IMG/VR virus record: IMGVR_UViG_3300045988_033256
DNA from: a virus
Reading direction: 5' to 3' (one strand)
Length of the DNA stretch: 50,200 nt
The notes below the pieces were generated by a model that ran no database searches, had not been told where the DNA came from, and saw nothing but the letters and a program-made list of their open reading frames with translations. A program made the position numbers and the translations under genes. Numbering within the stretch: the first letter of the stretch is position 1; each line of letters opens with the position of its first letter. Shown here one piece after another: positions 39,018 through 49,786 of this stretch.

Positions 39018-39602
39018 TTACTCCTTTCCCTTGGGTGCGAACTGTGCGGAATACCGCTGTGCAGCCAGACCGGCAGCACTTACCGCATGCGGTGCGGGAT
39101 TCTGAATCGGATTTGCAAACGTCGGAGCGGGTTTTTCGCTCTGAAATGCCGCCGGGTCGGATTCCTGCTGCTTCTTGCAGTAATCGTCAAAGCCGGTCAG
39201 CGTGCCGTCCTTCATTTCCAGTTTGTTTGCGGTCAGGTCAGCGATAAATGCCTTTTCTGCCGCCTTGGAGGTAAACTTAATACCCTTTGCGGTGATACCG
39301 GCGCGTACTGCGTCCGCATAATCGCGGGCATCGAGCTTGCTCTGGAATTCTGCGGTGTCGGTGTCGTACTTCTTCTGCAGGGTGTCGAGCTTGGTCTTCA
39401 AGTCGTCCGCGTCGCCCGCATTCTTCTTCAAGTCCTCAATGTCCTTGTCGCGCTGGGTGAGCTGGTCGCGCAGGTCGGTAACGTCTTTCTTGGCTTCTGC
39501 CGCCTGTGACTTGTATTTCTCAACATCCTTGCCGTTCAGTGCAAAAACCTTATCTGCCTGTTCATCAGTCAGACCGATTTCTAACAGTTCTTCTTTCTTC
39601 AT
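39018..39602 (-). CDS. Scaffolding protein
   Basis: It is a highly charged helical protein. The N-terminus MKKEELLEIGLTDEQADKVFALNGKDVEKYK is typical of phage scaffold proteins. Confidence 0.8.
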   Translation of the reverse strand: MKKEELLEIGLTDEQADKVFALNGKDVEKYKSQAAEAKKDVTDLRDQLTQRDKDIEDLKKNAGDADDLKTKLDTLQKKYDTDTAEFQSKLDARDYADAVRAGITAKGIKFTSKAAEKAFIADLTANKLEMKDGTLTGFDDYCKKQQESDPAAFQSEKPAPTFANPIQNPAPHAVSAAGLAAQRYSAQFAPKGKE

Positions 39603-39713
39603 GTGTGTACTCCTTTCAGATTAGGCGTTTTAGGTGGTCGCCGTCACCGATCTGCCTGCACTTTTAGGCTTGCAGGATAGCCAATTTCCGTAGTTTAATG
39701 CCGTTGCGGGCAT

Positions 39714-39794: not shown

Positions 39795-41213
39795 TTATTC
39801 CTCGCCCTCTGTTAGCTTTTCCGCGTTCGGCATCATTGCCCGCGCTTCTTCCTCGGTTACGCCGTACTTCTTTGCAATGTACAGCTCGCCTCGAATGAGA
39901 CCGGCAGAAACGTCATTGCGCATATCCGCAAGTTCTTTCTGCTTGCTCTCGGTGTCCTGCACAACGCCGTCGCCCCAATCGCACTGCAAGTCCCAATCAC
40001 CAGCAGGCGCAAGACCGTAAAGCGTGGCGTAAACGTCCATTCCATACAGCAAGCCGTTCAGAGCGTGTTCAAGTGCCGCCTGCGCATCCCTCACAGTGAC
40101 ATACATTGTCTGCTTACTGGATACGATCTCGGTTGCAGTTGCGTTTACCGTCTGCGGGTCGGACAGCGTGCCGAAAGACAAGCCGCAGTTCAGCTCGATC
40201 ATTTTCAAGGTGTCTTGGAAGCCCTTGTATAGTGCATCGTTGCGGAATGCCGGTGAAAACTCCTGATAGAAGTCTACGTCTTCAAACGGCATTCGGCGGA
40301 ACAGACGGTCACGGAGCAGCGGGTTCGTGTGCGATAGTCCGTGCTCATCTACAACGCGCTGTGGAATCGCAGAATCACTCATCAGGATACGGCGTTCGCC
40401 GCTTTCATATTCCCACATGAGCCGCTCCCACTGCTGGTCAGCCTGCCGGATGAGGTCAACTGCTGCGCCGCTGTAAAGCGACACACCGAGCGGGCTTTCC
40501 GGCTCGATGTTGTTTGCAATCGGCACTTTGAAAAAACCGAAAAGCGGACGTTCTACGTTCTGAATCGTCGTTTCCGGCGCAATCTGTGCCCAGTCCTCTA
40601 CAGTATTCAGCGGTACTTCCGAGCCGATACTACCGTTCTTGTCGGAGTTGTACGCCTTGTTCTTGATGGTGTACACGCCGCTTTTCAGTTCGTGGTACTC
40701 CAATTTGGTATAATATCGGTTCTTTTCTCGCTTGGTATCCGCGAACACTGCCGCTGTGATTTCGCCGTTGCTGTCAACACTGACCGGGTACGCGCTGCCG
40801 ACTGTGTTAAAGTCCACAAGCACACGGTTCTCTGATACAAACGGCTTGTAGAAGAAACCGCCGACCGAGAGACCCTTTTCAACGTCAATTCGCATGTGTG
40901 GAATCATACCGCGCAGGCTTTCGTTTAGGAACTCGGCTCGTGCGCCGCCATCAACAGTGATGGTGCTTTCAATGGTGGTTGGGCGTGCCACTGCTCGGCA
41001 GATAGCCGACGGCAGGCCGCAAGACGTAACATTCCGGTTGCCGTGCTGACCGAGCCACTCGGCATCGTCCATATACATCCGTCGCCACAGGTCAATGTTT
41101 GACTGCATCGTGGAATCATAGACCGCCGTCGCCCCTGTCAGTTCTTCAATTTTGTTTGCCGGAATCATTGCTTGCCTCACCGCCTTTATTAACTGCTTCA
41201 ACCGTTCAAACAT
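39795..41213 (-). CDS. Portal protein (SPP1 gp6-like)
   Basis: 472 aa. It overlaps the terL end and has the typical size and position. Confidence 0.9.
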   Translation of the reverse strand: MFERLKQLIKAVRQAMIPANKIEELTGATAVYDSTMQSNIDLWRRMYMDDAEWLGQHGNRNVTSCGLPSAICRAVARPTTIESTITVDGGARAEFLNESLRGMIPHMRIDVEKGLSVGGFFYKPFVSENRVLVDFNTVGSAYPVSVDSNGEITAAVFADTKREKNRYYTKLEYHELKSGVYTIKNKAYNSDKNGSIGSEVPLNTVEDWAQIAPETTIQNVERPLFGFFKVPIANNIEPESPLGVSLYSGAAVDLIRQADQQWERLMWEYESGERRILMSDSAIPQRVVDEHGLSHTNPLLRDRLFRRMPFEDVDFYQEFSPAFRNDALYKGFQDTLKMIELNCGLSFGTLSDPQTVNATATEIVSSKQTMYVTVRDAQAALEHALNGLLYGMDVYATLYGLAPAGDWDLQCDWGDGVVQDTESKQKELADMRNDVSAGLIRGELYIAKKYGVTEEEARAMMPNAEKLTEGEE

Positions 41214-42483
41214 TCACAAGCCCCCTTGCTCTAACCTCTCGGCGCACTATCGTCTGGAAGTAATAGCGTGATGCGTCCATATCATGGTCGAATTCCTTGA
41301 TAACCGCATCTTCGGGGGATTTATCGTCCCACATATACATGCCGAATTCGTCGATTGCTCCGGTACAGCTTGCATTGTACTGTGCATAACCAGCAGCAAG
41401 CAGCGTTCCCATCAGGCGGATACCGTCAAGCACGCTGTTGTCTGCGTCACGCACACGGAATTTACCGTGTCTGCGGATTGTTTCCTTGAACGATGCAGCC
41501 GAGGGGTCAATAATGATCGCCTCGATATACTGACCACCAACGAACGTTTCAAGATCGGCGTAGTATTCCTCATCTGTTTTCTGTTTCTTCTCCTTGCGGC
41601 TGTCGTGCCGATACGCACGCACGCAAGTTGATTTGCAGGTCATTTCATCAAACCGCCAAAGCTGGAACACGGTCGGGTTAATCGTGCCGTAGTCACAGGA
41701 CACAAACCAGCGATTGCCGGAACCTTCACCATCCGTAACGTGCAGTTCGGTTGAGAACATAGGATAAACCAGACCCTCTGCAACACGTCGCATACCGAGG
41801 ATATCACGCTGATACCAGATGCTCTTGCGGTCGTATGTCGCAAGGATTTCTTTCAGACGTTCATCCGATACAGAAAGGTTGTCTGCAATGGTGAAATGTC
41901 CGTAGTTGAAACCGTAGTTTGGGTTCTCCCGCTGCTTCTCCATATGGAAGTTGAGCACGTCTGTGTAGTACGGGTGGTTCTCGCCCTTCGGGTTAAGATC
42001 GTGATAAATACCACGGTCACCGCTCGTCATGGTACGGTCAAAGACTTCCTGCACAAACTTAGGGTGGCACTCGTTTGCCTCAGTGATATACGCAAGGCCG
42101 TAAGTGTTGCCCTTAATGTTCTTCTCGTCGCCGTCTTTACGACCGCCGGATACAAGCACGATCTTCTCAGCGCCGTTCCGCGTCTTGACGTAGATGCAGT
42201 CTCGGTTCTGGTACTTACCTACCCGGCAATTCTGCTTGCCGAAATAGTTAATCATGCCGTAACCGTCGCAGTCGATGATATTAAGCATTGCCGACGCAGT
42301 AGAAACGCCTGCAATGAGGTGAAATCTGTTCGGGTGCTTTTCCAATCGAGCGCAGAACGCCGTTGTTTGCAATACGTTCTTACCGCCACGCTTGCCGCCC
42401 TCGGCCACGTTGAACCAGCTATGAAGGGATTTATAGAAATAATCCACTTGTTTTTTCGTGAACGGTGCGGGGATATTATCCAT
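41206..42483 (-). CDS. terL: Terminase large subunit (PBSX/Terminase_3-like)
   Basis: The track start is TTG at 42489; the ATG at 42483 is used. The protein has the Walker A-like segment AEGGKRGGKN and a C-terminal nuclease domain. Confidence 0.93.
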   Translation of the reverse strand: MDNIPAPFTKKQVDYFYKSLHSWFNVAEGGKRGGKNVLQTTAFCARLEKHPNRFHLIAGVSTASAMLNIIDCDGYGMINYFGKQNCRVGKYQNRDCIYVKTRNGAEKIVLVSGGRKDGDEKNIKGNTYGLAYITEANECHPKFVQEVFDRTMTSGDRGIYHDLNPKGENHPYYTDVLNFHMEKQRENPNYGFNYGHFTIADNLSVSDERLKEILATYDRKSIWYQRDILGMRRVAEGLVYPMFSTELHVTDGEGSGNRWFVSCDYGTINPTVFQLWRFDEMTCKSTCVRAYRHDSRKEKKQKTDEEYYADLETFVGGQYIEAIIIDPSAASFKETIRRHGKFRVRDADNSVLDGIRLMGTLLAAGYAQYNASCTGAIDEFGMYMWDDKSPEDAVIKEFDHDMDASRYYFQTIVRREVRARGLVNV

Positions 42484-42847
42484 CTTCAAAATCCTTTATG
42501 TCTCTGTCCGGTGCAGGCTTCATCAGCATATCAACGAGTGGCTGCACGCCGTTGTCGTTGTCGCTTTCCATCGGCGCAGGGGTATCGCTCTGCCCGAGGT
42601 ACTGCCTACCTAACCAGATCAGCATTTGTATATTTCCACCTTTAGCCGCCTGTACCTGCCAGTGTCTCAAACGCAAGCGCATCTGTGACACGCCGCGCAC
42701 ATAAGCCGCCCTTACATCCTTGCGATTCAGAAAGTTTCCTCTCGCAAAGTCCAGAGCGTCCGCAATGTCCGCTTGGGTATTGCCCTCTGCGGCAAGTTCT
42801 TCGACGGCTTCAAGATCAATTACTTTCTTCGGTCTGCCTCTCGGCAT
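42476..42847 (-). CDS. terS: Terminase small subunit
   Basis: The N-terminus MPRGRPKK is followed by the HTH GNTQADIADAL. It overlaps terL. RBS AAAGGAGG is present. Confidence 0.8.
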   Translation of the reverse strand: MPRGRPKKVIDLEAVEELAAEGNTQADIADALDFARGNFLNRKDVRAAYVRGVSQMRLRLRHWQVQAAKGGNIQMLIWLGRQYLGQSDTPAPMESDNDNGVQPLVDMLMKPAPDRDIKDFEDG

Positions 42848-43111: not shown

Positions 43112-43477
43112 TTATTCACCAATGATTTTGCTCAAATATTCTTTTGAGCCTTTGCCGATTCGCGCAAACTTCATATCTTCGGTTTTAATCGGACGCTTGA
43201 CCGCCCGCGCGAATTCCTTGCCTTCGATATACTTTAGATCAGTATCGAATTCGAGAGATTCAAGAAATTCCTCTTTCTGCGCTCTGCTGGTAAAGCAGAT
43301 ACAACACCAATATTCAGTGTCGCACATATCGCGGAATCGCTTGTTCTCAGCGCCCATGCGCTCGCGGAAACTCTTTTCTACGTCTCCCAGTTCATCGAGG
43401 CACTCGCTTTCGAGCTGCTCTAATTCAATGTGATCGTCTTTTGTTTCCTTAACTTCGTCGTCGTTCCAATATCCCAT
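43112..43477 (-). CDS. Hypothetical acidic protein (121 aa)
   Basis: The ATG at 43477 overlaps the upstream stop. No motif was recognised. Confidence 0.6.
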   Translation of the reverse strand: MGYWNDDEVKETKDDHIELEQLESECLDELGDVEKSFRERMGAENKRFRDMCDTEYWCCICFTSRAQKEEFLESLEFDTDLKYIEGKEFARAVKRPIKTEDMKFARIGKGSKEYLSKIIGE

Positions 43478-44184
43478 TACAGTTCGCCCCTCCTGAATAA
43501 CTCAAGTTCCGCAAGCGGAAACCATGTGATGATCTTTTCGTAATCCCTCGGGAAATTCTCCTTGATCGGCTTCAAGAACCGGTAATCGATACCATCGAAC
43601 GTTCTGCCGAACAGCTTATAGTCTACCGGCAACCGAACACCGCTTGCATCAAATTCGCGCAGCAAGTCGGCCTTTACCCAGTCGAACACCGGATAGAACC
43701 GCTTTGCATTGTGGTTGATCGCTCCATGTGTTTTCATGGCGATACGCCGCATAGGACTGTCTGCCATTCTAACGCCGGTCGCAGTGTATACGCATTCCGG
43801 CAGGCGCTTGCATTCGCGGATGATCTCGCCAATCTCGGCATCATCATATTCTTCGCCCGGCAAGTCCAGCGCCTCGATCTTGGTTACATGCTCCGGCGAC
43901 TGGAAGACCAGATTTCGCAGCAGCCGGTACAGTGATCTGTGCGGCAGTCTGTAAATGTGAGTGCCGAAAAAATCCTCATAGTATGCGAGGCTGTTTTCGA
44001 CGAATTCCAGACCCGGCACAGTGTAACAATAATACGGGATTACATGCTTGAAGTACTTTCTCAGCTGCAACCACGCTGCAATGCTGTCCTTACCTGTGGA
44101 AAATGCTAAGATCGCGGTATCGCATTCCTCTGCCATAGTGCGGCACAGGCTCTCTCCGCTGCTTGCATCTACTCTATCATACAC
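43477..44184 (-). CDS. PAPS-reductase / PP-loop ATPase family protein
   Basis: AILAFSTGKDSIAAW is a PP-loop SGGKDS variant. A GTG start at 44184 is proposed, with GAGGAGGA 9 nt upstream and overlapping the upstream TAG. An ATG at 44136 is the alternative. Confidence 0.75.
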   Translation of the reverse strand: MYDRVDASSGESLCRTMAEECDTAILAFSTGKDSIAAWLQLRKYFKHVIPYYCYTVPGLEFVENSLAYYEDFFGTHIYRLPHRSLYRLLRNLVFQSPEHVTKIEALDLPGEEYDDAEIGEIIRECKRLPECVYTATGVRMADSPMRRIAMKTHGAINHNAKRFYPVFDWVKADLLREFDASGVRLPVDYKLFGRTFDGIDYRFLKPIKENFPRDYEKIITWFPLAELELFRRGEL

Positions 44185-44384
44185 TACGCTTTGTCCTCCT
44201 CTTTGTCTCGCTCCATCTGGCAATCAATCGCACGAGCGATAAAGCCATTCACGCTTTCGCTCCGGCCTTCCACATGGGATTTGATCTCTTCTTTCTTACC
44301 TTTCGGCAGGGTTAAATTAACCCGGTCATACGCCTTGTTGATGTACTTATTGGTTGCTTTCTGCTGCGCCTTGCTGGATGGCAT
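44184..44384 (-). CDS. Arc/CopG-like ribbon-helix-helix protein (66 aa)
   Basis: The start is trimmed to the ATG at 44384, preceded by GGAGGTG. The protein reads KATNKYINKAYDRVNLTLPKGKKEEIKSHVEGRSESVNGFIARAI. Confidence 0.7.
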   Translation of the reverse strand: MPSSKAQQKATNKYINKAYDRVNLTLPKGKKEEIKSHVEGRSESVNGFIARAIDCQMERDKEEDKA

Positions 44385-44455: not shown

Positions 44456-44508
44456 TATACTTGCGCAAATATAGTTGTTTTGCCTATTGCTATACTTGCG
44501 CAAATATA
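44456..44508. promoter_or_regulatory. Two identical 18-bp near-palindromic operators TATACTTGCGCAAATATA (44456-44473 and 44491-44508)
   Basis: It is a perfect direct repeat with a 35-bp period and a palindromic core TTGCGCAA. Copy 2 fills the spacer of the + strand promoter. Confidence 0.75.
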
Positions 44509-44515
44509 TTATACT
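44487..44515 (+). promoter_or_regulatory. Promoter TTGCTA-17-TATACT for the + strand cassette
   Basis: The hexamers lie at 44487-44492 and 44510-44515. Confidence 0.55.
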
Positions 44516-44559
44516 ATAGTCACAGTAAAGAAAACGAACACCGAAAGGAAGTAATCAAT

Positions 44560-45024
44560 ATGTTAACTAACCGAGAAACCAACGCAGCAATCAAGCGCGA
44601 ACTGAAAGCCGCAGGCTACAACACCAAGTCCTTCAAGGTATCCGTTAAGGATTGCGGATACAGCACCAGCGCACATGTTACGATCAAAGATCCGGCTGTT
44701 AAGCGCAGCGACGTTGAGAAGCTGCTCATGCACTGGGACGAGATCGACCGCGACGAGCGCACCGGTGAAATCCTCGCAGGCGGCAACTTTTATATGTTCG
44801 TTGAGTACGAGTACGGCCTCTTTGATGAGGTATCCGCCGAGTACATCGACGAGGCGGAAAAGGTGCTCAGAAGTTCCGAGGGCATCATAACGGTTCGCCC
44901 TGGTCTCCTGTACTATGACTACCGTCTTCACGACAGCAAAAGCCGCTGCACCGCCATTGGCGGAGCGAAAGAACTTGCTAAGTACATTTACCTGTATCAG
45001 CAGTTCGGCACGATCGGCGCTTAA
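44560..45024 (+). CDS. Hypothetical protein (154 aa), resembling LPD29-type domains of conjugative-element polyvalent proteins
   Basis: The start is trimmed to the ATG at 44560, preceded by AAAGGAAG. The N-terminus reads TNAAIKRELKAAGYNTKSFKVSVKDCGYSTSAHVTIKDP. Confidence 0.65.
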   Translation: MLTNRETNAAIKRELKAAGYNTKSFKVSVKDCGYSTSAHVTIKDPAVKRSDVEKLLMHWDEIDRDERTGEILAGGNFYMFVEYEYGLFDEVSAEYIDEAEKVLRSSEGIITVRPGLLYYDYRLHDSKSRCTAIGGAKELAKYIYLYQQFGTIGA

Positions 45025-45090
45025 AAGGTTCTCGCGGGGTTCATCCCAAAGCCCCGCAGCCACAATAATTTTAATTTGGAGGTACACACC

Positions 45091-45636
45091 ATGAACACCA
45101 TCAAGCACACCGAATACAAATACAACGGTCGCCGGGTTATCCTCGACACCTGCGAACTCACGCCGGGCAAATACGAGACTATGCTCCTGTACCCCAACGG
45201 CCACGAGATCGACTGCCGCACGGCACGCACCGAGGCGGACGCAATCGCAGACTTTGACGAGCTGCTGACCGCCTACCCGGCAGACACCAAGCCCGCAGCA
45301 CCCAAGCCGCTTACCGGCAAGTACGCCAAGCTCCGCGACGATCTGCGCAAGGTGTACGAGATCGGCAAAGCCGCAGCCGCACAAGTTGAGGACGGCGGCA
45401 CCTGCAATTTAGATGCGCCCTCGCTCCTACTCCCGCGCTGGCAGTCCGCCAAGATTGAGCAGGCTTGCAAGGAGGCAGGATGCGGCTGCTTTGAGTGGAA
45501 GTGCTTTAACCGGCGTTGGGTTATCTGCTTCCACATTCCCGGTCAGGCATACAAGCGCGAGACCGCTGCCGAGGTAATGACCAAGGCGCTTACCGCTATG
45601 GGCTATGATGCCCTCACATACTGCGCCATCGACTAA
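45091..45636 (+). CDS. Hypothetical protein (181 aa)
   Basis: The ATG at 45091 is preceded by TTGGAGGT. The protein contains DGGTCNLDAPSLLLPRW...GCGCFEW...PGQAYKRETAAEVMTKALTAMGYDA. Confidence 0.65.
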   Translation: MNTIKHTEYKYNGRRVILDTCELTPGKYETMLLYPNGHEIDCRTARTEADAIADFDELLTAYPADTKPAAPKPLTGKYAKLRDDLRKVYEIGKAAAAQVEDGGTCNLDAPSLLLPRWQSAKIEQACKEAGCGCFEWKCFNRRWVICFHIPGQAYKRETAAEVMTKALTAMGYDALTYCAID

Positions 45637-45704
45637 CCCACTCACCCGCCCCGGAGGAACGAGGGAATTCTCCCGCCCGGCTCATGCACCCGCGGCGGAA
45701 CATA

Positions 45705-45734
45705 TTGACACTACCCCGCACATCGGGGTACAAT
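45705..45734 (+). promoter_or_regulatory. Internal promoter TTGACA-18-TACAAT
   Basis: The hexamers lie at 45705-45710 and 45729-45734. The spacer contains a ccccg/cgggg hairpin. Confidence 0.5.
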
Positions 45735-45821
45735 TATCACAACAGCGCAAAACCTAAAGTCCTGCATATCGGACTTACAACGTGATACACTATTCACAAC
45801 AAACAAGGAGGAAAAAATATC

Positions 45822-46055
45822 ATGGCAGATTTAAGAGTTTGGGACAACGCAGGCAACATGATTCCTAACAAAACCGTACAGGATTGGATTGATTTTTACA
45901 AGGCGCAAGGCTACAGCGGCAACTTTTTCATCAATAAAAAGTGCTATGATTTCTTCACTCTTTCCGTCCGCACCCCCTACGATGTGGACAAATCCAAAGT
46001 TGTAACCAAAATCGACAACGGTTACTACGGCACGCCGGGCATTATCACCGAGTAA
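45822..46055 (+). CDS. Hypothetical protein (77 aa)
   Basis: RBS AAGGAGGAAAAAA is present. Confidence 0.6.
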   Translation: MADLRVWDNAGNMIPNKTVQDWIDFYKAQGYSGNFFINKKCYDFFTLSVRTPYDVDKSKVVTKIDNGYYGTPGIITE

Positions 46056-46068
46056 AGGAGGCAGCAAA

Positions 46069-46506
46069 ATGAAAATTCAAGTAGTGAAAGACTACACGAC
46101 GAATTTTGAGGGCGATGTTTATACCATCGACCTCAGCCGCAAATTTGAGGGATTCGAACCCGGAGATTTGATCTGTTATGCTTGTCCGTTCTCGCCTGCT
46201 ATGCCGCTGCAGCTCGAACTTGCAATTCGTGCAGACGGTTCTTTGATCTTCCGAAGCTGGAAATTTATCGAGGGCGAAGGAAACCATTACCTTCACACGC
46301 GCGAGCTTTCCGAGGCCGACCGCAAAGGCATCCAAACGCCATTCATTCCAACCGAAGCGCAGACCGATACCGTGAACGGCCTGTTCTCAGGCCGCATCAA
46401 GTTTGAAGGTCTAAAACTTGCGGTAGGCTCTACTCTCCAGCGCATTTGCCCTATCGACTTGCAGCGCGAAGAAAAGCTGACCGGCGAAAATATTTATCTT
46501 GCCTGA
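46069..46506 (+). CDS. Hypothetical protein (145 aa)
   Basis: RBS AAAGGAGG is present. Confidence 0.65.
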   Translation: MKIQVVKDYTTNFEGDVYTIDLSRKFEGFEPGDLICYACPFSPAMPLQLELAIRADGSLIFRSWKFIEGEGNHYLHTRELSEADRKGIQTPFIPTEAQTDTVNGLFSGRIKFEGLKLAVGSTLQRICPIDLQREEKLTGENIYLA

Positions 46507-46522
46507 TTGTAAATACCATGAC

Positions 46523-46560
46523 AAACCCCGCTCACCAAAGCCATAAGGTGAGCGGGGTTT
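46523..46560. terminator. 14-bp perfect-stem hairpin (bidirectional terminator-like)
   Basis: The stems are aaaccccgctcacc (46523-36) and ggtgagcggggttt (46547-60). Only short U-tracts follow on either strand. Confidence 0.6.
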
Positions 46561-47680
46561 CCCATTATACGACTGTTTCGGTTTTGCAGGACTTGCACCC
46601 GCTTTCGGCTCTATGCAAACCGGTATACCTCCACAGGGAGGTATGAACGCTATCGTCGCGTCTGTACGTCGGGCTTTTACCGACGGTTTCCCGGCTGTCC
46701 AGAACGGTTGTATGAAATCCAGAGAGGTATTACCTCACTTTCGCAAGTTTACTTGTGTTTCCGTTCTGTGTGATTAGGTTGTTTATTGCAAGAGATAAAC
46801 AGACTGGTGCTCTTTCGTGGCGTGTACTTAGCCACCCGAAAGCGCCGTATCGGCTTTGTAACTTTGTTAGCAAACTGGTGTTTTGCTCTCGGCTCTCTAA
46901 GTCCGTGTGAGTGCTTATCCAGTAGCACTCGCCCTCTCGATATAGGCTGTTCGGCGTCTCTGTCCGTCGTGTCACGCGTCTCTATCGGTGCGTAATCCGG
47001 CTGATTCCCTCGTAAGGTTACAGCGGGGAGCGACCCCGGTCGCGGCGTGCCTGCAAGCACCCGCTGAACTCTGCAAAGCCGTTGCAGCAGCTTCACAGGC
47101 GTTCGGAAACAGATTGTCCGTCTTTCCAGACTGTCAGAATATTATCGTCCTCGTTGGAGGCGTTGTGCTCCCTCCACCTCATGCAGTTTCGGGAACAGAT
47201 CGCCTTGCACGTCGTCCATCATGCAAGGCTTGCCAAAAGTCCGCCATGTTGCCCTTGGCTAAAAAGGTTCTGTACGTTACCCGTCCGGCCTCATGAAGCC
47301 ATCCGGGCGTTTTTGCGGTGACTGTTGCCCGCAGACACCGCAACACATTCTCAATTTTAGCGTGTATGTTATTACTCCGTCACCCTCATGCAGGCTTTGG
47401 AGCATATCGGCGTGCCGCGCAAAAGACACGCCGAAAGAATAGAAAGGATAATCAATGCCTTCGTTCCGCGAAAGGCGTTTTGCTCCTCTGCCCTCATGCA
47501 GACTTTGGAGCAGGTCAGCGGCAGGTCTCCCCACCGCTTTAAGTAGGTATTTGGGGTTAAACAGAAAGGCTTATCACCCGTCAGCCCTCACGCAGGCTTC
47601 CGGGCGTGTACCCGCCTTTCGGCGGGCTGAAAGTGGAGGAACGAAACTCCGTGATTCCGCCCTTTAGGGCTTTTATCACG
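46561..47680 (-). ncRNA. Candidate large structured non-coding RNA (about 1.1 kb) containing 5-7 repeated hairpin modules; strand tentative
   Basis: No credible ORF or RBS is present. A TGGTATAAT promoter lies at 47686-47694 on the minus strand and a strong hairpin lies at 46523-46560. Local stems are dense, and hairpins with a conserved loop and compensatory stems occur at 47167-47196, 47280-47307, 47373-47404, 47481-47512 and 47575-47608. Confidence 0.55.
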
Positions 47681-47685
47681 ATATC

Positions 47686-47694
47686 ATTATACCA
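47686..47694 (-). promoter_or_regulatory. Extended -10 promoter TGGTATAAT
   Basis: The reverse complement of attatacca is TGGTATAAT. It lies about 40 nt downstream of the stop of the late-regulator gene and points into the ORF-free region. Confidence 0.6.
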
Positions 47695-47733
47695 CCATTC
47701 TTTGTAGTATTGTGTAGTCCGTTTTCCACAGCT

Positions 47734-48090
47734 TTATGCACAGCCTGTGCGTATATGTTCTACTGCCCGCAACGCCCGTGCGTGCATCTTTCCGCGAACG
47801 TGCACTTCGTTGTAATTCATTCTCTCGGCGGTCTCTCTCCACGTCCGACCGTTTACATAGTGCTCGATCAACAGCGCCCGCAGCGCCGCATCCTGCACCT
47901 TAGCCGTTGTGCTGATAATCTCGGCCTTAATCAGCGCAAGTCGTTCCTGTTCTTTCTGTATCTTTTCGGATAGGGCAAGATATGCATCCGCCTTGTTTGC
48001 AGTCACGTCGCCTCCGCCGCCCGGTGTGTCCTTGATCGTCGCCGTTGCGCTTGTCGCCCGTGTCCACGCCCTTACTCGTGCTTCTTCCAA
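47734..48090 (-). CDS. DUF1492/ArpU-like late transcriptional regulator (sigma-70 region-4-like HTH); start uncertain
   Basis: LLIEHYVNGRTWRETAERMNYNEVHVRGKMHARALRAVE fits the family. The first canonical start is TTG at 48090 with no RBS, and the frame stays open up to 48153. Confidence 0.7.
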   Translation of the reverse strand: MEEARVRAWTRATSATATIKDTPGGGGDVTANKADAYLALSEKIQKEQERLALIKAEIISTTAKVQDAALRALLIEHYVNGRTWRETAERMNYNEVHVRGKMHARALRAVEHIRTGCA

Positions 48091-48136
48091 CGCAGAGATT
48101 GATTTTTCAAGGTCAATCCCTCGTCTGAGCCATTCT

Positions 48137-48352
48137 TTAGTCGTCGTGTGCCACTACCTCCTCCATACCGTGCTGTGTATATCGCCTGCGACGGCTGATT
48201 CTCGTCGCCTTGCGGACGCAACCCACACCCGGTTCACATCCGCGCGATTTCCCCGTGTCGATCAAATAATGACACGCCCACAGTTTAGAGCCTTGGCTCG
48301 TACCCAGTACTCGCCAGTATGCGCACCCAGCGCATTCGCTTTTCTTTTTCAT
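48137..48352 (-). CDS. Small Cys-rich (zinc-binding-like) protein (71 aa)
   Basis: The protein reads MKKKSECAGCAYWRVL...WACHYLIDTGKSRGCEPGVGC. Its ATG overlaps the upstream gene end. Confidence 0.6.
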   Translation of the reverse strand: MKKKSECAGCAYWRVLGTSQGSKLWACHYLIDTGKSRGCEPGVGCVRKATRISRRRRYTQHGMEEVVAHDD

Positions 48353-48684: not shown

Positions 48685-48960
48685 TCACTCGTCCGCACGC
48701 TCCAAACCATCTAACGCTCCGCTAAGTACAAGCGCCGTTGCTTCAACTAAAATAGTCATTTTAATCCGTGGCAGGTTATCGAACGGAACGTCTTTCGGCT
48801 TGTTCTTGCGCTGACCAGCGGTTTTCTGTGTCAGCATACGGCACATCTCGTCTACCGCTTCTTTAAGCAATGGTATGTTCGGTTTCTGGTTCTGAAATGC
48901 CGTCCAGAGCGCAAAATTTTCAAGATTTTCCTCTGCTTTTGCTTTAAGTTTATCATTCAC
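48685..48960 (-). CDS. Hypothetical protein (91 aa)
   Basis: The GTG start at 48960 follows AAGGAA. It overlaps the recombinase gene end by 8 nt. Confidence 0.55.
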   Translation of the reverse strand: MNDKLKAKAEENLENFALWTAFQNQKPNIPLLKEAVDEMCRMLTQKTAGQRKNKPKDVPFDNLPRIKMTILVEATALVLSGALDGLERADE

Positions 48961-49786
48961 ACGCTGATTCCTTCTTTTTCTTTCTTGCGTATGCCGCCCT
49001 GCGCTTTTCCGCGCATGCTGCGCACATCACTCGTCCGGGTATCGCATCGCGACATTGGCAGACCACGCAGACACCAGCGGCTTTCAGTTTGAGATACCAC
49101 GGGTCTTTTGCTTCTCGTTTCGGTTTAACTGGCTTAGGTTTTACTTCGCGCTTCTGTTTGACCGGTTTTGGCTTTGGTGGCTCCCGTTTCGGCAGCTCTA
49201 CGCCCACGCGCTTGCAGCCGTCTCGAAACGAGCTTACCGCCATTCCCAATTCACGCGCCGCTGCTGATTGTGACAGTTCGCCTTTCCTTGCGCGGTCCGC
49301 TACAGCAGCAAATTCCTCCGGAAGCGGTTTTTCTCTCCGTCCGAAATGTACGCCTCGCGCCTTTGCCGCAGCGATGCCCTCCGCCTGCCGCTTCTTGATG
49401 TTCTCACGCTCGGACTGTGCGACGTATGACAGCAGTTGCAAAACGATGTCCGCAATCAACCGCCCGGTCAGGCCCTTGTCCTCGCGCGTATCCAGCAGTG
49501 GCATATCGAGCACCACGATATCGGCGTTCTTCTCTTTCGTGATATGCCTCCACTGCTCCAAAATCTCATCGTAATTGCGTCCCAGACGGTCAATGCTGGA
49601 TACCATCAGCGTATCGCCTGTACGCAGTCTGCCGATAAGTTCGATGTACAGCGGTCGGTCAAAGTCCTTACCAGACTGCTTTTCTACGACAATATTTTCC
49701 CGCTGCACGCCTGCGCCGGTCAGACTGATAATCTGCCGTTCCTCGTTCTGATCGCGGGTAGATACACGGGCATAGCCGTAGGTCAT
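48953..49786 (-). CDS. Small serine recombinase (resolvase/invertase type) with a Lys/Pro-rich linker and C-terminal zinc-ribbon-like basic tail
   Basis: MTYGYARVSTRDQNEERQ...VSSIDRLGRN...SYVAQSERENIKKRQAEGI is the catalytic domain. The HTH is GELSQSAAARELGMAVSSF. The tail reads KPKPVKQKREVKPKPVKPK...CVVCQC...CAACAEKRRAAYARKKKK. Confidence 0.9.
   Translation of the reverse strand: MTYGYARVSTRDQNEERQIISLTGAGVQRENIVVEKQSGKDFDRPLYIELIGRLRTGDTLMVSSIDRLGRNYDEILEQWRHITKEKNADIVVLDMPLLDTREDKGLTGRLIADIVLQLLSYVAQSERENIKKRQAEGIAAAKARGVHFGRREKPLPEEFAAVADRARKGELSQSAAARELGMAVSSFRDGCKRVGVELPKREPPKPKPVKQKREVKPKPVKPKREAKDPWYLKLKAAGVCVVCQCRDAIPGRVMCAACAEKRRAAYARKKKKESACE

Follow-up and report, generated by a model that had tools for sequence, protein, structure and literature searches.

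The 50,200-nucleotide (nt) viral DNA of IMG/VR record IMGVR_UViG_3300045988_033256, referred to as the window throughout, contains an element of approximately 1,160 nt that we interpret as a gene for a large non-coding RNA (ncRNA) on the minus strand (46520..47679). This interpretation is based on fold z-scores, consensus folding with RNAalifold, covariation, the lack of a conserved open reading frame (ORF) and the lack of a match to any Rfam family. We are confident that the element is a structured RNA of the minus strand, and the signals at its ends suggest that it is probably made as a transcript of its own. It represents a new RNA family, which is similar in kind to the large phage RNAs ROOL and GOLLD but a member of neither, and it has an unusual modular architecture. 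More than 100 related phage loci, which fall into four lineages (A to D, with the window in lineage A), carry the element. The best explanation that we can offer, and one that we hold tentatively, is a stand-alone ncRNA gene whose product may serve as a multivalent scaffold or decoy.

Strand, folding and covariation

The folding of the region is strongly asymmetric between the strands. In 150-nt scanning windows the minus strand gave fold z-scores of -1.4 to -5.2 over 46425-47700; the plus strand averaged approximately -1 and the flanking coding DNA approximately 0. RNAalifold applied to 43 lineage A sequences yielded -332.9 kcal/mol for the minus strand versus -239.4 kcal/mol for the plus strand. 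The resulting consensus comprised 270 pairs, 36 of them compensatory, and its alignment contained 1273 G-U cells versus 14 A-C cells. In other words, G-U combinations are tolerated and A-C combinations are not, and both the RNAalifold energies and the z-scores favour the minus strand. The 99.5% pairing of the lineage A consensus is inflated, since RNAalifold picked the structure on that very alignment; the informative figures are the pairing of approximately 40% in slid controls and the asymmetry between G-U and A-C.

The same picture emerged from two parts of the element described below. In 54 distinct copies of a repeated 36-nt hairpin (the module hairpin) 89.4% of the cells were paired versus 75.5% after shuffling, a value that none of 500 shuffles reached, and pairing with slid partners did not exceed 46.5%. 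Five of its 10 pairs were changed on both sides, and pair 4-34 was GC in 29 copies and GU in 25. The 3' domain, compared in 48 distinct sequences from all four lineages, contained 19 pairs, of which 14 were compensatory; here 98.4% of the cells were paired versus at most 49% with slid partners. Taken together, observed pairing was 89-99% versus 30-49% with slid partners.

The initial annotation had proposed a hairpin-dense locus encoding a large structured RNA. Each of the hairpins that it listed is present (46625-46644, 46667-46685, 46781-46800, 46812-46842, 46869-46887 and 46909-46930), and its structure at 47049-47100 enclosing 47071-47087 corresponds to the two long hairpins of 47042..47104. 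The large fold thus stands, and the strand, which had been left open, can be assigned as minus. Statistically supported covariation had been named as a test of the idea, and the module hairpin, the 3' domain and the lineage A pairs all show compensatory change beyond the controls.

Ends of the predicted transcript

The extended -10 element and the 14-bp hairpin that the initial annotation had placed at the two ends of the locus are both present, and both are conserved in lineages A-D. The putative promoter TGGTATAAT (47686..47694, minus strand) was read directly from the sequence, lies approximately 40 nt past the stop of the upstream gene 47734..48090 and predicts a transcription start near 47679. 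Its counterparts are TGATATACT in lineage B, TGTATAAT in lineage C and TATATAAT in lineage D; TGnTATAAT or TATAAT is kept in all four, at a fixed distance of 5 nt from the 5' hairpin. At the opposite end a perfect, GC-rich stem of 14 bp at 46523-46560, which a repeat search extends to 19 nt at 89%, forms the centre of a putative bidirectional terminator (46518..46565) common to the RNA and to the convergent gene 46069..46506 (+). A strong terminal hairpin is found in all four lineages, and lineages B and D have a canonical U-tract at the same place (stem plus UUUUGCUU). The genes beyond the terminator are convergent in every lineage. Because the ends are conserved and the next genes are convergent, we read the element as a stand-alone gene that extends from 47679 to approximately 46520.

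The 10-nt loop of the terminator hairpin (46537-46546) occurs in both orientations among close relatives (L026, L061), as ..CACCUUAUGGCUUUGGUG.. versus ..CACCAAAGCCAUAAGGUG.., and recombination between the arms of the inverted repeat seems to have flipped it. In the lineage B locus L098, an 11-nt unit (TTGCTTAGATG) is repeated three to four times in tandem directly past the terminator (2680-2715); these repeats are not present in the window.

Coding potential

Positions 46518-47694, which contain no conserved ORF, lie in the gap that separates the stop codons of 46069..46506 (+) and 47734..48090 (-). The claim that this gap of approximately 1.2 kb holds no credible ORF was borne out: its ORFs overlap, are spread over all frames and do not exceed 115 amino acids (aa). 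An intact ORF conserved in homologous regions had been named as a finding that would speak against the RNA. When frames were compared between the tandem units of the element and between relatives of lineages A and B, no ORF was kept among the homologues and no stop-free frame was common to the relatives. The frame that reads Leu-His-Glu in the repeated motif is, by unit, 2,0,0,2,0 in the window, 2,0,0,1,2 in L001 and either 1,1,0 or 1,1,1 in lineage B, and variants of the core differ by an insertion or deletion of 1 nt.

It might be thought that the region is decayed or unusual protein-coding DNA, for example a gene for a repeat protein with an LQSLHEG motif, and in L098 a single 115-aa ORF does span three units (..LQRLHEAGG.., ..RLHEDAPG.., ..LQSLHEGGG..). 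However, this frame relation is lost in nearly all other loci, close relatives included (1,1,0 and 1,0,2,2), unit 1 of lineage A has a stop immediately past the motif, and the loop "codons" are invariant whereas their flanks change pairwise. A coding origin is extremely improbable on these grounds. The LQSLHEG repeat peptide itself was ruled out, as the frame differs between units and between relatives.

Architecture of the RNA

The predicted RNA begins with a 5' terminal hairpin (47649..47681), which in the lineage A consensus fold consists of an outer stem UCGUGAU/AUCACGG and an inner hairpin GCCC-UAAA-GGGC. Lineage B has CGUGG/CCACG and GCUCC/GGAGC at this place, and lineage D has GUGG/CCAC and GAGG/CCUC. 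The hairpin is followed by a UCCUCC stretch resembling an anti-Shine-Dalgarno sequence (47635..47640), which is present in all four lineages (A GUUCCUCCACUUUC, B GUCCUCCUAAUUC, C GUUCCUCCG, D UUUCCUCCUACGC). In the lineage A fold this stretch pairs only with 47692-47696, which lies upstream of the predicted start and hence outside the RNA.

The upstream half of the RNA is composed of five tandem units of approximately 95-112 nt. Each unit contains a clamp hairpin of variable sequence and then the conserved 36-nt module hairpin, in which a 6-bp stem, a 2-nt purine loop on either side (GA/GA or AA/GA) and a stem of 3-4 bp carry the loop UGCRYGAG. The loop can be described as a GCRYGA hexaloop with the closing pair U-G, which is C-G in lineage D. 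A covariance model of the module hairpin (R1), built from 39 distinct copies, found exactly five matches in the window, all on the minus strand (E 2e-14 to 5e-11; next best E 0.11), and all of its 159 matches in 46 loci fall inside this element. R1 and pattern searches with two loop motifs detected no further copies at significance in the window.

The clamp hairpin of unit 1 (47610..47627) is GCCCGCC-GAAA-GGCGGGU in the lineage A consensus fold; its counterparts are CCCCYGC-UUCG-GCGGGGG in lineage B and CCCCGC-GAGA-GCGGGG in lineage D. Module hairpin 1 (47573..47608, loop UGCGUGAG) scored 47.5 bits with R1 (E 1.9e-12). It is followed by module hairpin 2 (47479..47514, loop UGCAUGAG; 53.6 bits, E 2.3e-14), module hairpin 3 (47371..47406; 49.8 bits, E 3.7e-13), module hairpin 4 (47276..47311, loop UUCAUGAG; 43.9 bits, E 2.4e-11) and module hairpin 5 (47164..47199; 42.8 bits, E 5.4e-11). 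The clamp hairpins preceding modules 2 to 5 are located at 47517-47538, 47407-47434, 47314-47342 and 47202-47229, respectively.

Past the array lies a second type of repeated hairpin, GUCUG-GAAAGA-CGGAC after UUCUGAC (47108..47135), with two compensatory pairs in lineage A. It is found once in lineages A, C and D and two to three times in lineage B, where the stems are GCCCG/CGGGC and GCGUG/CACGC. Two long hairpins (47072-47097 and 47042-47064, within 47042..47104) come next, with a stem of ten pairs of which three are compensatory.

The downstream 600 nt comprise a conserved core and a dispensable segment. The core (46931..47040) is the most conserved part of the RNA and is kept across lineages A-D. 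Its motifs are GGGGUCGCUCCCC, GCUGUAACC..UCAGC, CGG..CCG, the ACCGAUAG loop, GUGACACG and GYCC-ANANYGAGA-GGRC. The helix around the invariant ACCGAUAG loop appears as CGC/GCG, CAG/CUG or CAA/UUG, and GYCC/GGRC covaries as well. The variable segment of approximately 195 nt (46736..46930, with hairpins at 46909-46930, 46812-46842 and 46781-46800) is replaced or missing in relatives. In some members of lineage A the alignment breaks at q804-q998 and approximately 170 nt of unaligned sequence stand there instead; in lineage B most of the segment is missing.

The hairpins of the 3' domain occupy 46625..46703. A GNRA hairpin with a 3-bp stem (46684-46693) varies among relatives between CGG-GAAA-CCG, GGC-GCAA-GCC, GGA-GGAA-UCC and UGA-GAGA-UCA. 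It is followed by hairpins at 46669-46683 and 46648-46660 and by AUACCUCC-CUGU-GGAGGUAU (46625-46644), a hairpin whose stem occurs as CCUCC/GGAGG, CCGCC/GGCGG, CCCC/GGGG or CCGC/GCGG.

Just before the terminator the RNA can form a tRNA-like minihelix (46579..46622), in which CGGUUU/AAACCG encloses GCGGG-UGCAAGU-CCUGC. The outer, acceptor-like stem of 6-7 bp is CGGUUU/AAACCG in lineage A, UGCAGCC/GGCUGCA in lineage B and CGGCCCU/AGGGCCG in lineage D. All six acceptor-like pairs and three of the five T-stem pairs covary (9 of 11; columns 84-89/123-128 and 105-109/117-121). The 7-nt loop, U-G-C-R-A-N-Y, has the form of a T-loop, and the 3' strand of the outer stem directly adjoins the inner one. 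The acceptor and T arms of tRNA are arranged in this way, and the structure can be described as an acceptor/T-arm minihelix. Rfam gave a weak match to Tymo_tRNA-like at 46574-46646 (-) (14.9 bits, E 3.5). At its default thresholds ARAGORN reported no tRNA or transfer-messenger RNA (tmRNA) in the 50.2-kb window. At 80% thresholds it drew mismatched and mutually inconsistent cloverleafs in three of five lineages, with only the T-arm in common, and the minihelix was accordingly not taken for a tRNA.

Relatives and distribution

A search with the upstream protein retrieved 76 IMG/VR loci and a motif scan 100 loci. In lineage A the region downstream of the regulator gene is 88-96% identical to the window. 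Even where the identity of the adjacent regulator protein falls to 67-69% (L061-L076), the RNA region retains 91-96%. The non-coding DNA is therefore better conserved than the neighbouring gene, which argues for selection on the RNA itself. Lineage B (e.g. L098) has only blocks of sequence in common with the window. Lineages C and D were reached through protein homologues (L178 with 77-80% identity; L179 and L180 more distant). The number of units is 2-5 in lineage A, 3-4 in lineage B, four in lineage C and three in lineage D. Throughout, the module loop is almost invariant, and the stems covary or drift. Within the RNA, single hairpins exist in distinct allelic forms that have been reshuffled between sequences nearly identical elsewhere, and some members of lineage A (L014, L016, L070) have core segments of the lineage B type.

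A scan of a genome collection found one locus, on a 25-kb contig of a metagenome-assembled genome (MAG) of Subdoligranulum variabile. Scanning IMG/VR with a core motif (GCCGGANNACNNACCGATAG) returned only members of lineages A and B together with approximately 20 unrelated matches due to chance or to other genes. A metagenome scan with a weak pattern (four plain bases at the start) yielded L321 as the sole true member among at least 120 loci. The S. variabile MAG, the IMG/VR and ENA sources and the origin of distant relatives from human and lemur faeces are consistent with gut phages of Oscillospiraceae as the carriers.

Comparison with known RNAs

The initial annotation had suggested a candidate for a new class of large phage ncRNA, and this is supported by the lack of a conserved ORF, the covariation and the results of the Rfam searches. 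With Rfam 15, cmscan of the window at gathering thresholds assigned no family to the element. A permissive scan of 46400-47800 (E up to 10) gave best scores of 14.9-16.6 bits (E 0.84-7.1) versus gathering thresholds of 40-60; these matches are at chance level and derive mostly from the terminator. Lineages B, C and D produced nothing at E up to 1. In particular, neither the ROOL nor the GOLLD covariance model matched, be it in the whole window at its gathering threshold, in 46400-47800 with E up to 10 or in lineages B-D, and no match was obtained for the Rfam 15 models of OLE, HEARO, raiA, 6S RNA, tmRNA, RNase P, riboswitches or ribozymes. A hammerhead-like reading of CUGCAUGAGG was likewise dismissed, since this motif forms the loop of a hairpin, stems II and III and GAAA elements are missing, and no Rfam ribozyme matched. 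The search with models of large RNAs that had been advised thus gave no clean match in the window or the three other lineages, and the advised blastn comparison, run in "distant" mode against the deposited phages of INPHARED, gave none either. Literature searches that covered large RNAs of phages, tRNA-like RNAs of prophages and anti-CRISPRs made of RNA turned up no account of the element.

ROOL and GOLLD are large prophage-associated RNAs of unknown function (PMC5737381). They are described as ORF-free, densely structured RNAs of several hundred to approximately 1,000 nt from prophages of Firmicutes (PMC5737381, PMC12286853), and as RNA-only homo-oligomers (PMC12286853). The likeness to both RNAs that had been noted at first holds in kind, the element being large, ornate and prophage-borne, but it does not extend to membership, as neither model matches. 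Moreover, the RNA described here is longer than either, has 2-5 exchangeable tandem units and a tRNA-like minihelix, and is so far limited to one group of gut phages. ROOL and GOLLD are often located beside tRNA genes, in contrast to this element, in whose 50.2-kb window ARAGORN found no tRNA.

CsrB/RsmZ, ToxI and phage pseudo-ToxI are built of tandem units that repeat one loop motif, with a copy number that varies between strains, and in the case of pseudo-ToxI a phage carries the array and turns it against a protein of its host. The present RNA resembles them in that its tandem structured units show the same short loop repeatedly and in variable number. However, its units are approximately 95-112 nt long, 60-75% alike and spaced 94-207 nt apart, whereas those of CsrB and ToxI are near-identical and 36-46 nt long. 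It lacks a GGA motif, and approximately 600 nt of non-repetitive conserved structure follow the array. Tandem Repeats Finder reported no near-identical repeats of approximately 34-46 nt of the ToxI type, the units being too diverged. Nor does an endoribonuclease toxin gene, as expected for the ToxI type, come next on the same strand: past the array there is no minus-strand ORF, the next 600 nt are non-coding and convergent genes follow.

Other tRNA-like structures (the tmRNA domain, the tRNA-like structures at viral 3' ends, mascRNA) share with the minihelix a stem of 6-7 bp enclosing a 5-bp stem with a T-type loop of 7 nt; unlike them, the minihelix has no D arm, anticodon arm or CCA. The Racr RNAs, solitary repeat units, are small and structured, and phages use them as decoys for proteins (PMC10651486). 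The idea of a phage RNA decoy is common to both, and in L178 an AcrVA2-like gene is located approximately 550 nt beyond the RNA. A Racr unit, however, mimics a whole CRISPR repeat of 28-37 nt, whereas here only the loop is conserved and the stems differ between units. Covarying stems around a conserved loop argue against a mimic of a CRISPR repeat.

Possible functions

An RNA organised like beads on a string fits best with exchangeable units, a near-invariant loop and a core accompanied by a dispensable segment. RNA polymerase would start approximately 7 nt downstream of the extended -10 element (47686-47694), just past the stop of the regulator gene, and would stop at the strong hairpin 46518-46565. 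The transcript would then present, in order, a protective 5' hairpin, UCCUCC, five units, the core, the GNRA hairpins, the minihelix and the terminator. Each of the hairpins with identical loops might bind one copy of a protein of the host or of the phage, so that capacity would be set by the number of sites (2-5 among the relatives), and the tRNA-like end might serve processing or stability. By analogy with the repeat RNAs mentioned above, a function as a multivalent protein scaffold or decoy is our best guess, though it is less likely than not. A more specific version, which we consider rather unlikely, is an RNA-based counter-defence or host-takeover decoy that would soak up an RNA-binding or RNA-cleaving protein of the host such as a defence nuclease or a regulator. 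The RNA would display the repeated hairpin together with look-alikes of translation RNAs (the acceptor/T-arm minihelix and UCCUCC), and the phages would tune its capacity by gain or loss of units. This version is suggested by the location in an accessory hotspot and by the anti-CRISPR-like gene approximately 550 nt beyond the RNA in one relative.

Several points weigh against a stand-alone RNA acting as scaffold or decoy. The prediction of a transcript draws solely on the conserved -10 element and the terminator. A simple sigma-70 scan did not report the promoter, which has no -35 element, and a terminator scan did not report the hairpin, with its 10-nt loop and short U-run; it is accordingly their conservation that supports the two signals. 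The covariation stems partly from recombining alleles and paralogous units and not from deep phylogeny. The family is narrow, being confined to four related lineages of gut phages. The 600 nt towards the 3' end have the look of a compact, conserved fold and not of a sponge, and the variation in copy number is equally compatible with other roles. Finally, the proposed partner is hypothetical, and we know of no RNA-binding protein documented to recognise a GCRYGA hexaloop.

A different role for the same RNA would be self-assembly of the ROOL/GOLLD type, in which the hexaloops, GNRA loops and T-loop make RNA-RNA contacts that build a multimer or a cage. Large size, the lack of an ORF, the prophage location, several GNRA tetraloops, the T-loop and the tandem purine internal loops all fit such an assembly, as does the reported homo-oligomeric nature of ROOL and GOLLD (PMC12286853), and the commonest loop core, CAUG, is self-complementary. 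But no ROOL or GOLLD model matches, no tRNA genes are nearby, and the gain and loss of units (2-5) and the dispensable segment of approximately 195 nt fit a rigid architecture poorly. Moreover, the loop cores vary (CAUG, CGUG, CACG, CGCG), and the CACG loops of lineages B-D cannot pair with one another. We therefore give self-assembly only a modest chance. Kissing between the loops of different units, considered separately, is unsupported, since CACG loops that cannot pair together co-occur in lineages B-D. Alternatively, the unpaired segments might be the active part, with UCCUCC or other stretches of a trans-acting RNA pairing with the Shine-Dalgarno regions of host or phage mRNAs and the remainder providing stability. 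UCCUCC is kept near the 5' end in four lineages amid otherwise diverged sequence, and C-rich and CU-rich seeds aimed at ribosome-binding sites are common in small RNAs of Firmicutes. A seed of 6 nt needs no 1.1 kb of covarying structure, however, and no target was identified, the pattern searches having been confined to the two loop motifs; the chance of this explanation appears slight.

The location of the element suggests two further possibilities. It lies between a late-type regulator gene and the terminase genes, its promoter is directly past the regulator gene, and lineage B has terS and terL on the same strand approximately 900 nt past the terminator. It might thus be the leader of a late (packaging and structural) operon, at which the regulator, or hairpins similar to put or nut, would bring about read-through into terS/terL, as in the PR'-6S-tR' region of lambda. 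The leader of lambda PR' (6S RNA) and the StxS small RNA of Stx phages likewise start from a constitutive-looking promoter right past a late regulator gene and give a terminated ncRNA before the late genes, and the regulator shows weak matches below the cut-off to Phage_antitermQ (E 7e-4 and 1.3e-4). In contrast to the lambda leader of approximately 200 nt, however, the present RNA measures approximately 1,160 nt, its regulator is by structure similar to sigma region 4 and DUF1492 and not demonstrably a Q protein, and convergent genes lie past the terminator in all four lineages, so that read-through would be antisense to them. In no lineage do late genes come directly past the terminator on the same strand; the terminase genes lie further on. 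The resemblance to the lambda leader is thus one of position only. The model of the regulator matches sigma region 4, with no Q structure among the matches listed, and distant homologues of the regulator manage without such a leader. Nor is it evident why a leader would require a conserved structure of 1.1 kb or finish in a tRNA-like fold. On this evidence a leader is unlikely. The remaining possibility is that no functional RNA is involved and that the element works as DNA, for example as an origin, a site of packaging or an array of protein-binding sites, with hairpins that form in cruciforms or in single strands. The terminase genes are near, the repeated motifs are approximately 100 bp apart, and compensatory changes alone do not distinguish RNA from single-stranded DNA. 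This is nevertheless very improbable, given the strand asymmetry (G-U 1273 versus A-C 14, with alifold and z-scores on one strand), the conserved promoter and terminator exactly at both ends and the presence of motifs typical of RNA (GNRA and UNCG tetraloops, a T-loop). A double-stranded binding site, moreover, would keep the sequence of its stems and not their pairing.

Flanking genes and genomic context

The gene upstream of the RNA (47734..48090, minus strand) encodes a regulator similar to sigma-70 region 4 (DUF1492 type). In Pfam it gave Phage_antitermQ matches of 19.9 and 22.3 bits (E 7e-4 and 1.3e-4) versus a cut-off of 26, and a DUF1492 match of 19 bits versus a cut-off of 21.5; it also matches phrog_36, "transcriptional regulator". 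Its AlphaFold model is a small helical protein with a mean confidence (pLDDT) of 86. The C-terminal domain of the model superposes on region 4 of ECF sigma factors with TM scores of 0.64-0.80 among the best Foldseek matches, none of which is below E 0.001. The identification of the regulator as a Q antiterminator is unsupported, as no Q structure is among the 50 Foldseek matches listed.

The ORF of the regulator starts with TTG (48090) and has no Shine-Dalgarno sequence (48088-48156, minus strand). Twenty-one in-frame codons upstream of it correspond to the conserved N-terminal helix of relatives (TTTKEWLRRGIDLEKSISA) and are preceded by TAG at 48154-48156. In lineages C and D the regulator begins with MTAKEWL, and its ATG corresponds to ACG in the window; others are called with 164-167 aa, running into the upstream gene. 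A non-canonical start codon, translational coupling and a frameshift out of 48137..48352 are all conceivable.

Distant homologues of the regulator (26-32% identity) are found at the end of the replication module in Dulem virus 37, upstream of a DNA-packaging protein, and in a Heliusvirales phage, upstream of small hypothetical ORFs and a ParB-like gene, in both cases with no large gap. Since no gap exists beside these homologues, the RNA together with its convergent neighbours has the appearance of accessory DNA inserted between the gene of the late regulator and terS/terL, which in the window are located at 42476..42847 and 41206..42489. Convergent genes stand directly past the terminator in lineages A, C and D; in lineage B a convergent small ORF comes first, before terS and terL.

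The region 4353-5902 of L178 can be compared with 45076-46506 (+) of the window. A gene for a 145-aa protein has the same position as 46069..46506 and is followed by the AcrVA2-like gene (Pfam PF26125 match); in place of the latter the window has 45076..45636 (phrog_23592) and 45822..46055. The convergent block beside the RNA may be an anti-defence island. Both strands of 44461-45636 carry long ORFs that overlap one another, on the minus strand 44563..45384 (273 aa), for which Pfam gave no match, and on the plus strand 44461..45024 and 45076..45636.

A gene similar to phosphoadenosine-phosphosulfate reductase (43477-44223, minus strand) is located just upstream of the terminase genes, and a small serine recombinase of the resolvase/invertase type (277 aa; 48953-49786, minus strand) is encoded upstream of the regulator module. 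The sole Rfam family in the window is the GP20-b cis-regulatory motif at 39622-39682 (-), with 57.6 bits versus a gathering threshold of 36.2. It is situated in the structural-gene region between the minus-strand ORFs 39795..41213 and 39018..39602.

Significance

To our knowledge the large and highly structured ncRNAs known from bacteria and phages make up no more than about a dozen classes, and each class studied so far that we are aware of (RNase P, tmRNA, OLE, ROOL, GOLLD, HEARO/omega RNA) has revealed unexpected biochemistry. The carriers of the present family appear to be prophages abundant in human-gut Oscillospiraceae, with dozens of contigs in IMG/VR. The modular design, with a variable number of hairpins bearing identical loops, a core and a tRNA-like end, makes the RNA well suited to experiments. 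Long "empty" gaps beside the late regulators of phages are worth screening for further RNA genes. If the RNA did assemble with itself, it would represent a new natural RNA architecture; if its role were that of a scaffold or decoy, an RNA would join the players in the conflict between phages and their hosts in the gut.

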